Positions 1-6,000 of a stretch of DNA of 9,131 nt are shown here, one piece after another. Every line of letters begins with the position of its first letter. Positions within the stretch are counted from its first letter, which is position 1. This stretch comes from a virus (Duplodnaviria; Heunggongvirae; Uroviricota; Caudoviricetes), in IMG/VR virus record IMGVR_UViG_2698536301_000018, positions 1 to 9,131 of that record. The stretch is one strand, 5' to 3'. Position numbers: made by a program.

Positions 1-3000
1 GGCCTGGAATGCCGGGATTCAGTTCAGTCCCGTAGAGACGGTGGTTATTGACCTTGCTTATGAAGGTTCCGGCAGTGGCGACTGGCGCACTGACGGGTTC
101 ATCGTGGGTGTTGGCTATAAATTCTGATTAGCCAGGTAACACAGTGTTATGACAGCCAGCCGATTCAGGCGGGCTTTTTTGTGGGGTGAATATGGCAGTA
201 AAGATTTCAGGTGTACTGAAAGACGGTACAGGAAAACCGGTAGAGAACTGCACCATTCAACTGAAAGCCAGACGGACCAGCAGCACGGTGGTGGTGAACA
301 CGGTGGCCTCTGAAAATCCGGATGAAGCCGGTCGTTACAGCATGGACGTTGAGTACGGTCAGTACAGCGTCATTCTGTTGGTGGAAGGATTCCCGCCATC
401 ACATGCCGGAACAATCACAGTGTATGAAGATTCTCAACCCGGTACGCTGAATGATTTTCTCGGTGCCATGTCGGAGGATGACGTCCGGCCGGAGGCACTG
501 CGTCGTTTTGAACTGATGGTGGAAGAAGCGGCGCGTAACGCAGAGGAGGCGAAGAAGAATGCCGGAGAGGCGGAGACATCAGCGAGGAATGCCGGCATAT
601 CAGCCAGTCAGGCAGAAGAGAACGCTGCAAATGCTGACACTTCAGCAGGGGATGCATCGGAGTCAGCCCGGCAGGCGGCAGAAAGTGCAGCCGCTGCAAA
701 GCAGTCAGAGGAGGCGTCCTCGTCCTCGGCCTCTGAGGCCGCTCAAAAAGCCAGTGAGTCATTACAAAGTGCAGCAGATGCTGAGTTGTCAAAAAAGACG
801 GCAGAAAGTGCAGCCGGTAATGCAGCCAGGGATGCAACGACCGCAACAGAAAAAGCCCGGGAGTCAGCAGAAAGCGCACAGTCAGCGGAACAAAGCAGGA
901 TAGCGGCGGAAGAAGCCGTAAACCGAATCCCGACCGTGGTGGGGCCTCCCGGGCCAAAGGGGGAACAGGGGCCCGCGGGTCCTCAGGGGCCGAAGGGAGA
1001 TAAAGGAGAGCGTGGCGACACCGGCCCGGCAGGGGCAACCGGTGAACGGGGGCCGGCAGGTGATGCTGGTCCGGCAGGCCCGCAGGGGCCGAAAGGCGAC
1101 AGGGGAGAGCGGGGAGAGACCGGTCTGACGGGAAATGCAGGTCCACAGGGTCCAAAGGGAGATACCGGTGCGGCAGGCCCGGCAGGCCCACAGGGACCGA
1201 AAGGAGAAACAGGTGCGGCTGGCCCGGTGGGGGCAACCGGACCTCAGGGGCCGAAGGGCGACCCGGGGGAGACGCAAATACGGTTCCGTCTGGGGCCGGG
1301 AAACATTATTGAGACAAACAGCCATGGCTGGTTCCCGGATACAGATGGCGCACTCATCACCGGACTGACCTTTCTTGACCCCAAAGATGCCACACAGGTT
1401 CAGGGGCTGTTTCAGCATTTGCAGGTCAGGTTTGGTGACGGGCCGTGGCAGGATGTTAAGGGGCTGGATGAAGTGGGCAGTGATACAGGCAGAACAGGAG
1501 AATGACATGAACGTACTAAAAAAACTTATGCAGCGTCTGTGCGGTTGCGGAAAGCATGATGACCGTGAAAACGGGGAGTTACTTACAGCACAGCTGCGAC
1601 TGGGACCGGCAGACATTCTGGAGTCCGATGAGAATGGCATTATCCCGGAGCAGGACAGGGTAATCACGCAGGTGGTGATACTGGATGCGGATAAAAAGCA
1701 GATACAGTGCGTGGTAAGACCGCTGCAAATCCTGCGTGCTGACGGGAGGTGGGAAAATATTGGCGGAATGAAATAGCCGACAGCTTCACAAAAACCGGAG
1801 TCCGGCTCCGGTTTTTGTGTTGACATATAATACAGAAGTGTGTTACAGCTATTTAAGTCTGGAGTTCAAATTAAAACAGGGAGTTTTGTTATGCCATTTA
1901 CATTTTATTTGTCGTCCGAGAATCAATTGTCAATACAAGATGTTGAAGTTTTGCAAAACGCAGCCAGAGCGAATGATACAGGGAATATTATAATAGGAGA
2001 CAGGCAGCTTTCTGTTCGTTATCAGAGTGCTATGGACGCTTTTATTGTTAATCCTGTTCAGGGGGAGCTGTATTCAGGTCTTAATAATACTGCTTTGGAT
2101 GATGTTCTCAGTCTGGCTGACGTTATTGAGAGTCGGTTGAATGGAGGAAGCTCATTTCTTGATGTATTCGACAGATATATGATACAAACAATGCAAACCA
2201 TGATGAATGGTAATGAGGGCGATCTTGGATCGTTAGCGACTCGATTATCTTCAAGTGCTTTTTCGGTTTCTCCTGAGGATATATCCTGTATACCGGAGGC
2301 ATTGCAGTGTCCGATTACATTGGCAATTCCAGAGCGTGGTGTTTTTCTTAGAAACTCCGAGGAATCCTCTGTGTGTAGTTTATATGATGAAAATGCTCTC
2401 TCTCGTATAATTAATGATGGGGGGCATCATCCATTAAGTAGGGAGCCAATAACAGCATCAATGATTGTAAAGTCTGAAGATTGTATTTTTGACGCCTCAA
2501 AGGGAAACTTCATTATAAAAGATAGTTAAAATATTTTAAATGAAATAATATTGACTTTCGATAGTTTATATGAAAACACCACAGGCATTCGGAGAGTGAA
2601 AAGCTTCCTGTGGTGATAAAAATATGATACGCGAGTTATTCTTCACAAGTCAGAAAGAAAGCAAGTAGACTGGCCCCCTGAATCTCCAGACAACCAGTAT
2701 CACTTAAATAAGTGATAGTCTTAATACTAGTTTTTAGACTAGTCATTGGAGAACAGATGATTGATGTCTTAGGGCCGGAGAAACGCAGACGGCGTACCAC
2801 ACAGGAAAAGATCGCAATTGTTCAGCAGAGCTTTGAACCGGGGATGACGGTCTCCCTCGTTGCCCGGCAACATGGTGTAGCAGCCAGCCAGTTATTTCTC
2901 TGGCGTAAGCAATACCAGGAAGGAAGTCTTACTGCTGTCGCCGCCGGAGAACAGGTTGTTCCTGCCTCTGAACTTGCTGCCGCCATGAAGCAGATTAAAG

Positions 3001-6000
3001 AACTCCAGCGCCTGCTCGGCAAGAAAACGATGGAAAATGAACTCCTCAAAGAAGCCGTTGAATATGGACGGGCAAAAAAGTGGATAGCGCACGCGCCCTT
3101 ATTGCCCGGGGATGGGGAGTAAGCTTAGTCAGCCGTTGTCTCCGGGTGTCGCGTGCGCAGTTGTACGTCATTCTCAGACGAACCGATGACTGGATGGATG
3201 GCCGCCGCAGTCGTCACACTGATGATACGGATGTGCTTCTCCGTATACACCATGTTATCGGAGAGCTGCCCACGTATGGTTATCGTCGGGTATGGGCGCT
3301 GCTTCGCAGACAGGCAGAACTTGATGGTATGCCTGCGATCAATGCCAAACGTGTTTACCGGATCATGCGCCAGAATGCGCTGTTGCTTGAGCGAAAACCT
3401 ACTGTACCGCCATCGAAACGGGCACATACAGGCAGAGTGGCCGTGAAAGAAAGCAATCAGCGATGGTGCTCTGACGGGTTCGAGTTCTGCTGTGATAACG
3501 GAGAGAGACTGCGTGTCACGTTCGCGCTGGACTGCTGTGATCGTGAGGCACTGCACTGGGCGGTGACTACCGGCGGCTTCAACAGTGAAACAGTACAGGA
3601 CGTCATGCTGGGAGCGGTGGAACGCCGCTTCGGCAACGATCTTCCGTCGTCTCCAGTGGAGTGGCTGACGGATAATGGTTCATGCTACCGGGCTAATGAA
3701 ACACGCCAGTTCGCCCGGATGTTGGGACTTGAACCGAAGAACACGGCGGTGCGGAGTCCGGAGAGTAACGGAATAGCAGAGAGCTTCGTGAAAACGATAA
3801 AGCGTGACTACATCAGTATCATGCCCAAACCAGACGGGTTAACGGCAGCAAAGAACCTTGCAGAGGCGTTCGAGCATTATAACGAATGGCATCCGCATAG
3901 TGCGCTGGGTTATCGCTCGCCACGGGAATATCTGCGGCAGAGGGAGAGCGGGGAGAGACCGGTCTGACGGGAAATGCAGGTCCACAGGGTCCAAAGGGAG
4001 ATACCGGTGCGGCAGGCCCGGCAGGCCCACAGGGACCGAAAGGAGAAACAGGTGCGGCTGGCCCGGTGGGGGCAACCGGACCTCAGGGGCCGAAGGGCGA
4101 CCCGGGGGAGACGCAAATACGGTTCCGTCTGGGGCCGGGAAACATTATTGAGACAAACAGCCATGGCTGGTTCCCGGATACAGATGGCGCACTCATCACC
4201 GGACTGACCTTTCTTGACCCCAAAGATGCCACACGGGTTCAGGGTTTTTTTCAGCATTTGCAGGTCAGGTTTGGTGACGGGCCGTGGCAGGATGTTAAGG
4301 GGCTGGATGAAGTGGGCAGTGATACAGGCAGAACAGGAGAATGACATGAACATACTAAAAAAACTTATGCAGCGTCTGTGCGGTTGCGGAAAGCATGATG
4401 GCCGTGAACACGGGCAGTCGCTTACAGTACAACTGCGACTGGGGCCGGCAGACATCCTGGAGTCAGATGAGAATGGCATTATTCCGGAGCAGGCCAGGGT
4501 AATCACGCAGGTGGTGATACTGGATGCGGATAAAAAGCAGATACAGTGCGTGGTAAGACCGCTGCAAATCCTGCGTGCTGACGGGACGTGGGAAAATATT
4601 GGCGGAATGAAATAGCCGACAGCTTCACAAAACCGGAGTCCGGCTCCGGTTTTTGTTGTCATGTCCGGTGGATGTTTGTTAGGAAAGCAAAGATGGCAAA
4701 ACTGCTGGAGGTTTTGTGGTTGAGTATGCCAATATAATTAATAGATTAAAGAGTTAGTTGTGAAGAAAATATGGATAAACAGGACGACGAATGCTTTCAC
4801 CGATAAGGACAACTTTCCATAACTCAGTAAATATAGTGCAGAGTTCACCCTGTCAAACGGTTTCTTTTGCAGGAAAGGAATATGAGTTAAAGGTCATTGA
4901 TGAAAAAACGCCTATTCTTTTTCAGTGGTTTGAACCTAATCCTGAACGATATAAGAAAGATGAGGTTCCAATAGTTAATACTAAGCAGCATCCCTATTTA
5001 GATAATGTCACAAATGCGGCAAGGATAGAGAGTGATCGTATGATAGGTATTTTTGTTGATGGCGATTTTTCAGTCAACCAAAAGACTGCTTTTTCAAAAT
5101 TGGAACGAGATTTTGAAAATGTAATGATAATCTATCGGGAAGATGTTGACTTCAGTATGTATGACAGAAAACTATCAGATATTTATCATGATATTATATG
5201 TGAACAAAGGTTACGAACTGAAGACAAAAGAGATGAATACTTGTTGAATCTGTTAGAGAAAGAGCTGAGGGAAATTTCAAAGGCGCAGGATTCTTTGATT
5301 TCTATGTATGCAAAGAAAAGAAATCATGCATGGTTTGATTTCTTCAGAAATTTAGCCTTATTAAAAGCAGGAGAGATATTCAGGTGCACATATAATACAA
5401 AGAATCACGGTATTTCATTCGGGGAGGGGTGTATCTATCTTGATATGGATATGATACTTACAGGTAAGCTTGGTACAATATATGCTCCTGATGGAATTTC
5501 AATGCATGTGGATCGTCGTAATGATAGTGTAAATATTGAAAATAGTGCAATAATTGTTAACCGTAGTAATCATCCTGCTCTACTTGAGGGACCTTCTTTT
5601 ATGCATAGTAAAGTAGATGCTCATCCATATTATGATGGTTTGGGGAAAGGAGTTAAGAAATATTTTAATTTTACACCATTGCATAATTATAATCATTTTT
5701 GTGACTTTATTGAGTTTAACCACCCTAATATAATCATGAACACAAGTCAGTATACATGCAGTTCATGGTAAAGGAATTTGATATAGTTTATTTTGTTGTA
5801 ATAAATGATTTGCAGGGTATTAGATATAAACATGAAAATTCCCTCATTACAGTCCAACTTCAACTTTTCCGCCCCGGCAGGATACTCTGCTCCCATTGCT
5901 CCTAATCGTGCTGAAAATGCCTATGCGGATTACGTTTTGGATATAGGTAAGCGAATACCACTTTCCGCAGCAGATTTAAGCAACGTATACGAAAGTGTAA

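Follow-up and report, generated by a model that had tools for sequence, protein, structure and literature searches.

Two lambdoid prophage effector loci abut at a single N in a draft contig, very probably through a scaffolding join between near-identical tail fibre ends

Type III secretion system (T3SS) effector genes located directly 3' of lambdoid tail fibre genes are well known, with many copies per EPEC or EHEC genome, and recombination among resident lambdoid prophages is well documented. The term exchangeable effector locus (EEL) is said to stem from Tobe et al. in PNAS in 2006. EELs are located at the tail fibre end of lambda-like EHEC and EPEC prophages (PMC8112680, citing its reference 20 for the term). 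The stretch of DNA analyzed here (the window; 9,131 bp) resembles EELs in that nleG in one place, and nleB2, nleC, nleH, and nleF in another, directly follow a fibre gene, an 89-aa Phage_fiber_C open reading frame (ORF), and a hairpin, and in that insertion sequence (IS) elements and degraded genes lie alongside the effectors. We found no biological difference between the window and EELs; its only oddity is that two loci stand back to back, and this oddity rests on an N. In relatives, the corresponding prophage ends have the order gpJ-lom-fibre-orf-effectors-yodB/zinT or gpJ-lom-fibre-orf-nleG-...-int-dusA, and the window itself spans just the part of this layout from a lom fragment to a ykgJ-like remnant.

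All features described below are on the plus strand, except the strandless base at 3941. The window starts inside a prophage repeat, the 3' end of lom (1 to 127; Pfam Ail_Lom and Ail/Lom annotation in relatives). Downstream are a tail fibre gene, as assembled, of 437 aa with collagen-like Gly-X-Y repeats (192 to 1505; an ORF with collagen-like matches); small ORF A (1507 to 1776; 89 aa, Phage_fiber_C domain PF06820, 8 aa differences from ORF B); and a stable, terminator-like hairpin followed by a T run (1787 to 1819; fold of −24.2 kcal/mol, z of −4.8), which was absent from the output of a consensus terminator scan. The T3SS effector gene nleG (1891 to 2529; 212 aa, PF06416 T3SS_NleG) encodes a protein with identical counterparts in dusA-side prophages, 66 blocks of our collection being listed. 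The first 1,275 nt of IS2 (2666 to 3940) comprise the left inverted repeat, TAGACTGG at 2666; orfA (NF006928, 276 bits; cut-off 229); the A6G −1 frameshift site AAAAAAG at 3074; and orfB (NF006918, 694 bits; cut-off 597; model positions 1 to 289 of 301). A pair of inverted repeats with a target-site duplication was not found in the window, the right end being missing and the sequence stopping at 3940, followed by the N of the public record.

Further downstream, small ORF B (4346 to 4615; 89 aa, Phage_fiber_C, PF06820) encodes a protein found identically in 969 blocks; a called 437-aa fibre gene precedes it in five of the six places shown, and no fibre gene is called upstream of it in locus L030. 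Among the effector genes, nleB2 (4791 to 5771) encodes a 326-aa arginine glycosyltransferase effector (NF011909, 693.7 bits with a cut-off of 595; PF24688; nleB2 annotation in relatives). It is followed by a 96-aa 5' fragment of nleC (5805 to 6095; "nleC, missing C-terminus" in loci L001, L002, and L032), a truncation also found in closed genomes, and by nleH (6489 to 7324; two ORFs, annotated as frameshifted), which scores below the cut-off (NF041316, 385 bits; cut-off 450) because it is frameshifted near 7190; closed genomes carry the same pseudogene. The caspase-inhibitor effector gene nleF (7379 to 7948; 189 aa) was identified by PF16809 and by annotation in relatives. Thus, T3SS effectors were detected in the window by the NleG, NleB, and NleF profiles and, below the cut-off, by that of NleH. 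A ykgJ-like remnant lies 3' of nleF, as annotated in relatives. Homology to relatives stops at 9038, and the last 93 nt of the contig (9039 to 9131) belong to the end of an IS66-family (ISCro1-like) element and start with GTAAGCG; from 9020 or 9024 to 9131, the window matches ISCro1 flanks at 95 to 96%.

The window contains a direct repeat, 1103 to 1818 (copy A) and 3942 to 4656 (copy B), with about 97% identity over about 715 nt. A BLAST alignment of 1096 to 1818 with 3934 to 4656 covered 724 positions at 97.1% identity (19 mismatches, 2 gaps), and the length and identity of the repeat are far beyond chance. Copy A comprises a fibre 3' end, small ORF A, and the hairpin, and copy B a fibre 3' end (3942 to 4344), small ORF B, and a hairpin. 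Both begin with an exact core, here called R (1103 to 1395, equal to 3942 to 4234; 293 nt, rounded by the repeat search to 300 nt at 100%), which sequence comparison points to as the likely place where the assembly path switches prophage. Of the 19 differing columns that we counted up to 1818, the small ORF has 14 and the fibre 3' end 4 (1396, 1406, 1407, and 1409); the remaining one is an indel at 1790. An earlier note on this DNA had placed the repeat at 1101 to 1816 and 3941 to 4654 with roughly 20 differences, which agrees with these data, as do its 14 differences in the small ORF; its count of 5 in the fibre part is corrected to 4. It had also correctly described copy A as ending an intact fibre ORF followed by nleG, and copy B as followed by nleB2, nleC, nleH, and nleF, though two of these genes are degraded as described above. 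With 293 nt exact and about 715 nt at 97%, the repeats have the length and similarity that RecA-dependent recombination needs. The same is true of every pair of prophage fibre ends in the genome. The 719 genomes that carry the fibre-end module have it at a median of 12 sites each.

The window is the entire contig CYFA01000058.1 (9,131 bp; our locus L005) of the E. coli draft assembly GCA_001284345.1. The record and the window differ at one base: position 3941 is A in the window and N in the record, where it is the sole non-ACGT base. Position 3940 is the last base with homology to IS2 and 3942 the first with homology to the fibre gene, and the N lies between them; the odds of a randomly placed ambiguous base falling on this junction are roughly 1 in 1,000 to 1 in 9,000. 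The public record therefore consists of two blocks, 1 to 3940 and 3942 to 9131, of which the left stops within IS2 and the right starts within the fibre gene, separated by one N that marks an unsequenced join. The window likewise starts and stops within repeats, in lom at its left edge and in the IS66-family element at its right. Shown as A, the N gives the appearance of a sequenced fusion with an ORF reading across it. A single N may occasionally represent an ambiguous base call within continuous sequence. Because this N is located at the exact IS2/fibre junction, the "truncated IS2" and the fibre copy "beginning mid-gene" of the earlier note are two joined sequence ends abutting a placeholder, and the stop of IS2 at 3940 is a contig end and not the end of a deletion.

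On the left side of the N, copy A matches dusA-side prophage loci (L006 to L009, L013, and L014) at 19 of 19 variant sites, and 1107 to 3944 is 99.9% identical to L010. In L010, IS2 is intact and followed by a hypothetical gene, a tail-assembly remnant, dinI, int, and dusA. An intact IS2 is also present at the same site after nleG in L003, L004, L006 to L009, and L011 to L013, with the prophage continuing beyond it. Accordingly, the dusA-side locus (fibre-orf-nleG-IS2-hyp-tfa'-dinI-int; L006 to L013, and L003 and L004 with an extra ISCro1) shares the IS2 insertion site and the copy A variants with the window but differs from it in that IS2 is complete and the fibre 5' parts are roughly 4% divergent from 41 to 1102. 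The separate nleG arrangement that the earlier note proposed to look for thus exists, adjoining dusA.

Copy B, in turn, matches one different prophage in two closed genomes (L028 and L030) at 19 of 19 variant sites. These haplotypes support that the copies derive from different lambdoid prophages and are not a recent tandem duplication, as had been suggested. The fibre 5' end (1 to 1102) pairs perfectly with copy B, not copy A, in the near-identical closed genome Z1323HEC0108, to which 1 to 1110 is 100% identical. Only two complete-genome records match 1 to 1110 at ≥99% (H101 and H102), and these matches lie within L028 and L030, both of the B variant at all 19 sites. When 1 to 1395 was joined to 4235 to 4658, the product aligned over 1,820 bp to the intact Z1323HEC0108 locus L028 without a mismatch and with a single gap, versus 18 mismatches and 2 gaps for 1 to 1822 as assembled. 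Z1323HEC0108, the closest closed relative, seems to be without the nleG-IS2 locus, which is absent among the top matches listed; the source strain must therefore differ from it and may carry its own rearrangements.

The effector block has yet another counterpart. L032, a third prophage of Z1323HEC0108, differs from 4616 to 9038 by 1 mismatch but from 3942 to 4615 at 28 sites. Sequence comparison identified 4616 to 4658 as a 43-nt stretch common to prophages P1 and P3 of Z1323HEC0108, at which the haplotype changes from P1-like to P3-like. The yodB/zinT-side locus of O145:H28 strains and Z1323HEC0108 (fibre-orf-nleB2-nleC'-tfa'-nleH'-nleF; L002 and L032) has the same nleC truncation and nleH frameshift as the window. 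Compared with L032, the window has a 3942 to 4615 haplotype from another prophage and an ISCro1-like element from 9039 onwards. The second separate arrangement to be looked for, with nleB2, nleC', nleH', and nleF after fibre and orf, exists as well, adjoining yodB. Of the 30 closed genomes that match best, at least 27 carry, in place of the junction, a "collapsed" 6.2-kb locus with which the whole collapsed window is colinear.

The junction itself was present in 0 of 5,426 complete E. coli genomes and in no GTDB species-representative genome or JGI metagenome contig, even with a wildcard at the N. Thus, the two sides have other continuations in closed or independent genomes, and none of the collections searched contains the join. 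Moreover, repeat copies vary at the very sites where the blocks end: CGGCAG is followed by T in IS2 and by C in IS2-like variants, and the base directly 5' of GGGAGAGCGG in fibre genes is G (16 loci) or T (8 loci). In L010, an independent short-read contig, the first base lies 4 nt away from the counterpart of 3942.

Taken together, we consider it very probable that the window is a short-read draft scaffold threading two or three lambdoid prophages with near-identical fibre 3' ends. One underlying locus would read lom-fibre (1 to 1395 plus 4235 to 4344)-orfB, followed by nleB2-nleC'-nleH'-nleF or another downstream region. The other would be a dusA-side prophage whose own fibre 5' end lies outside the contig and is followed by R, the A variant, orfA, nleG, an intact IS2, and prophage genes. 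Read pairs of the true fibre-orfB locus would link the B-variant block to the one that holds R and the 5' end of the fibre gene, so that the scaffolder would then have set the two blocks in tandem. Greedy, base-by-base gap filling may have run both edges into the repeats up to the copy-differing sites, leaving one N that no reads would span. On this sequence evidence, the fibre gene at 192 to 1505 is probably a composite, with P1 as the source of its 5' part and R, and the dusA-side prophage P2 as that of its final 110 nt; the exact 437-aa protein is recorded on CYFA01000058.1 alone.

From the accession series and date, our guess is that a Sanger Velvet/SSPACE/GapFiller pipeline produced GCA_001284345.1. 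One leftover N in SSPACE/GapFiller output would mean that extensions met without overlap. Both programs are called greedy and prone to false joins by their users, joins appear as N in the output, and GapFiller lengthens edges by one nucleotide at a time using 30-mers and a 0.7 majority rule (PMC5320598, PMC3446322). Repeat-induced false joins of this kind share with the window the N-marked join, flanks in multi-copy repeats, and ends at copy-variable sites. Some read-pair support for adjacency was found by the scaffolder.

A genuine junction, i.e., capture of the nleG-IS2 segment of a dusA-type phage, comprising a fibre 3' end, orfA, nleG, and most of IS2, into the fibre gene of a second effector prophage, is improbable in our assessment. 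The mechanism it would require, in which the left side recombined homologously within the shared fibre and the right side arose by illegitimate joining of the IS2 interior to mid-fibre, is just as doubtful, although GGG (3942 to 3944) is common to IS2 and fibre and could be a 3-nt microhomology, prophage fibres recombine in nature, and IS elements and inter-prophage recombination are known to reshape effector loci (PMC8112680). However, IS-mediated rearrangements retain an IS end and none is retained here, and the perfect pairing of the fibre 5' end with copy B in Z1323HEC0108 would demand at least two extra recombination events. Similarly unlikely is the outcome, an nleG-IS2 cassette flanked by a real 0.7-kb direct repeat, with the N as one uncalled base: the sequence as given does read through, with ORF 3080 to 3967 spanning 3941, and the contig is recorded in two samples, though the second may be the same data. 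Against this stand the position of the N exactly at the join, the absence of the junction from the other genomes and metagenome contigs searched, and the stop of both ends at copy-variable sites, as an extension algorithm would stop. If true, a genuine junction would create a larger effector island between 0.7-kb repeats, from which nleG could be lost or amplified by homologous recombination.

We regard as slightly less probable still that order and orientation are real and the gap is large, the N standing for the remainder of IS2 and of one prophage plus the head-to-tail genes of a second, and equally so the tandem or nested prophages this implies, in which a phage has inserted at the effector locus of a prophage already present; integration at effector-linked att sites within prophages and tandem clusters are documented in EPEC and STEC (PMC8112680), the ykgJ-like remnant follows nleF, and a scaffold N means an unspecified number of bases in the pipeline of PMC5320598, but nleG-IS2 lies at dusA and nleB2-nleF at yodB/zinT, different chromosomal sites, in every relative examined, no closed genome has both loci within about 5 kb, and the usual fragments of a few hundred bp (300 to 500 bases in PMC5320598, which may not apply to this library) cannot truly link tens of kb, any apparent agreement of their pairs being accidental.

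Returning to the scaffolding join, the sequence comparisons argue that the earlier note was right in assigning the copies to different lambdoid prophages, while their joining within the genome by deletion or recombination is unsupported, its sole evidence being a base that is N in the record. Excision of the nleG-IS2 segment via the direct repeats needs both copies on one molecule, and the N, which breaks continuity at a junction absent from the other collections searched, therefore leaves excision unsupported as well. The assembly artefact that the note had itself allowed for is largely what our results point to, with an N at the junction and the join absent from the other collections searched.

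These results illustrate that scaffolded short-read draft contigs can string several prophages together, and novel junctions in repeat-rich prophage DNA should be compared with the original record for Ns and with closed genomes. What remains biologically is several resident phages with almost identical tail fibre ends, which is ordinary; as biology, the finding is of little consequence, the arrangement being textbook EPEC/EHEC genomics.

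The gene content of the window is as the earlier note described it. An intact, collagen-like tail fiber ORF of 437 aa (192-1505) is followed by an 89-aa Phage_fiber_C ORF, nleG, and orfA and orfB of IS2, for which the models scored above their cut-offs. After these come another fiber end with its own Phage_fiber_C ORF, and then nleB2, nleC as a fragment of 96 aa, nleH with a frameshift, and nleF. Fiber-end effector loci of this kind were reportedly first described by Tobe et al. in 2006.

Using a repeat search and pairwise alignment, we found that the segment at 1103-1818 (copy A) is present again at 3942-4656 (copy B), with 97.1% identity over 724 aligned positions, 19 mismatches, and 2 gaps (BLAST), which confirms the proposed repeat of ~715 bp with ~20 differences. 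The copies share a 100% identical core of 293 nt (R; 1103-1395 and 3942-4234). Of the 19 columns that distinguish them, 14 lie in the 89-aa small ORF, as previously counted, and 4 within 110 nt of the fiber gene's 3' end, close to the 5 previously counted; the remaining one is an indel within an A run 5' of a hairpin. At the amino acid level, there are two changes in the fiber end and eight in the small ORF. The hairpin, which is followed by a T run, marks the end of the repeat; the consensus terminator scan did not list it, although it folds strongly. The fiber gene matches collagen-like adhesins (NCBIfam) and contains, at 932-1261 and 3969-4100, many imperfect Gly-X-Y (collagen-like) repeats on a 33-nt scale (family D2 has 10 members). 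These internal repeats make short-read assembly of the gene harder still.

By exact-protein look-up, the window is the entire 9,131-bp contig CYFA01000058.1 of draft assembly GCA_001284345.1. A comparison of the window with this record (L005) revealed a single difference: the record has N at position 3941, its sole non-ACGT base, and the window has A. Homology to IS2 extends to 3940 (nominally to 3944, GGG being common to both sides), and fiber homology starts at 3942 (at 3938 in some relatives). The N coincides with the IS2/fiber junction, and therefore what appears to be an IS2 lacking its last 55 bp, joined to the interior of a fiber gene, is two sequence ends across a placeholder. Likewise, the 295-aa ORF that crosses the junction (3080-3967) exists only because the N was written as A. 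The substitution thus produced a fusion that looks sequenced and hides a scaffold join. An exact-protein look-up returned nothing on record for the IS2-fiber fusion ORF; the record's gene call at the junction spans the N and would probably carry an X. The as-assembled fiber protein is on record on CYFA01000058.1 only. A look-up of the 92-aa fiber fragment was uninformative, as an identical piece is called wherever a fiber gene is frameshifted.

In 5,426 complete Escherichia coli genomes, a 171-nt query centered on the junction matched over its fiber half only, with a best coverage of 57% and no match at 80% or above. The exact junction pattern was also absent from GTDB representative genomes and JGI metagenome contigs, scanned with A at the junction in one case and with a wildcard of 0 to 3 nt in the others. 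The earlier note's proposal that two loci were joined in the genome by deletion or recombination is therefore not supported, since the join is marked by an N and is absent from all 5,426 complete genomes; without physical linkage, there is also no basis for the suggested homologous excision of the nleG-IS2 segment through the direct repeats. Of the 30 top-ranking closed-genome matches to the whole window, at least 27 are to a 6.2-kb locus that corresponds to the window minus 2,839 bp, and two matches (H1 and H2) reach 90% coverage only because an unrelated IS3-family element is inserted between their nleC and nleH genes.

Each of the two arrangements does exist separately. Positions 41-3944 are colinear with five prophage loci on the dusA side in relatives (L006-L008, L013, and L014), and 1107-3944 is 99.9% identical to the dusA-side contig L010, with 3 mismatches including the N/A site. 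In these six loci, as well as in L003 and L004, a complete IS2 is present at the identical site after nleG. In these dusA-side loci, IS2 is followed on its 3' side by a hypothetical gene of 232-242 aa, a tail-fiber-assembly remnant, dinI, an integrase gene, and dusA. The 232-242-aa protein is conserved in L006-L013 (at ~12.1-13.0 kb in L006), has no Pfam match, and could be another candidate effector. Positions 3938-9038 are colinear with a yodB/zinT-side prophage locus (fiber-orf-nleB2-nleC'-tfa'-nleH'-nleF) found in many closed genomes, among them L002 at 99.35%. The closed genome 14EC007 has similar nleG and nleB2 loci ~1 Mb apart (H27 and H31).

The copies can be traced by their distinguishing sites. 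Copy A has the state of the dusA-side loci L006-L009, L013, and L014 at 19/19 sites, and copy B that of a prophage adjoining the hya operon in two closed genomes (L028, in Z1323HEC0108, and L030) at 19/19 sites. The earlier view that the copies come from different lambdoid prophages and diverged long ago is thus correct, and a recent tandem duplication is ruled out because each copy is an independently attested haplotype. The 5' part of the fiber gene carried by the contig pairs with copy B in closed genomes: 1-1110 matches the hya-side prophage of Z1323HEC0108 at 100.0% identity, and matches of at least 99% were found in only two closed-genome records (H101 and H102), both inside the B-variant carriers L028 and L030. 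When 1-1395 was joined to 4235-4658, the product aligned to the hya-side closed locus over 1,820 bp without a mismatch and with a single gap, whereas 1-1822 as assembled gave 18 mismatches and 2 gaps. Downstream, 4616-9038 differs at a single base (5593) from the yodB-side prophage of Z1323HEC0108 (L032), compared with 28 differing sites for 3942-4615. The latter segment instead matches the hya-side prophage of Z1323HEC0108 at every base, and a second haplotype switch lies within 4616-4658. Against the very close relative Z1323HEC0108, the contig thus reads as hya-side prophage P1 (1-1395), dusA-type prophage P2 (1396-3940), N, P1 (3942-4658), and yodB-side prophage P3 (4616-9038), with switches located within the exact repeat R (293 nt) and within a 43-nt common stretch (4616-4658) that includes the hairpin.

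Based on these data, the window is very probably an artefact of scaffolding or gap filling that strung together distinct prophage loci with a repeat in common. The earlier note had named an assembly artefact among the findings that would refute its idea, and the evidence points in that direction. Among the 719 genomes that have it, the fiber-end module occurs at a median of 12 places per genome, and other short-read assemblies have contig breaks inside this gene (L010 starts 4 nt from the equivalent of 3942; L009, L011, and L012 start at 475, 1713, and 1804, respectively). At the left edge of the junction, ...CGGCAG is followed by T in IS2 proper and by C and then divergence in IS2-like variants; at the right edge, the base directly 5' of GGGAGAGCGG in fiber genes is G (16 loci) or T (8 loci). 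Both edges end at positions that differ between repeat copies, as expected for a majority-rule, base-by-base extender. GapFiller extends base by base using 30-mers and a voting ratio of 0.7, and closes a gap only when both extensions overlap (PMC3446322). In the Sanger bacterial pipeline, Velvet contigs are scaffolded by SSPACE with joins written as N, followed by 120 GapFiller iterations, and the pipeline's authors describe these tools as greedy and note that they "can lead to false joins" (PMC5320598). Our guess is that GCA_001284345.1 stems from Sanger EPEC project ERP001141, a Velvet-assembled project of 197 isolates at the Sanger Institute (PMC5343136); the accessions were in no searchable paper. 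Read pairs from a real fiber-to-orfB locus would connect the B-variant block with the one carrying R and the fiber 5' end, and we infer that the scaffolder placed the blocks in tandem because of such links. Both outer ends of the contig lie within repeats, in lom on the left and, on the right, 93 nt into an IS66-family (ISCro1-like) element beginning with GTAAGCG at 9039, which is a typical appearance for a short-read contig. This element (9039-9131) is inserted where relatives run on towards yodB, and its family also interrupts the dusA-side locus between the small ORF and nleG in L003 and L004.

A genuine illegitimate join with one central base uncalled is very unlikely, as no evidence speaks for it except the scaffold itself. 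The same lack of support applies to a correct order of the two blocks across a large stretch of missing sequence, the pattern of tandem or nested prophages; such clusters are documented (PMC8112680), and we regard this reading as very unlikely. An IS2-mediated adjacent deletion or a composite transposon is rejected, as the right end of IS2 is missing, the window has one IS2 copy, and the breakpoint coincides with a contig end; a conserved single-prophage architecture is rejected because the arrangement is absent from the complete E. coli genomes searched. The only join directly flagged is that at the N. The P1-to-P2 switch in R and the P1-to-P3 switch might be software errors or mark a true recombinant; the latter, at 4616-4658, is either a further assembly path error or a real fiber-end exchange between prophages, and recombination of prophage fiber genes does occur (PMC8112680).

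The shortening of nleC (5805-6095) to 96 codons and the frameshift of nleH (6489-7324) near 7190 are annotated identically in the closed genomes L001, L002, and L032, and are therefore inherited pseudogenes rather than draft errors. Two directly repeated 45-nt segments (87% identical) are present, one immediately 3' of the fiber-module hairpin (4650-4694) and one upstream of nleH (6343-6387), the latter copy ~100 nt downstream of a tail-fiber-assembly gene remnant (~6140-6250) annotated in closed genomes; this placement suggests that the nleH-nleF block once stood behind another tail fiber module. Downstream of nleF, a short ORF (8280-8453, minus strand) occupies the position at which a YkgJ-family remnant with a frameshift is annotated in relatives. 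This region may be attB-in-PP_2, an intra-prophage attachment site from the ykgJ-ecpE region linked to effector loci (PMC8112680).

Altogether, the back-to-back effector locus is very probably not a real feature, and its parts belong to known kinds: NleG, NleB2, NleC, NleH, and NleF of the window are ordinary members of the effector loci at the fiber end of lambda-like prophages (PMC8112680).
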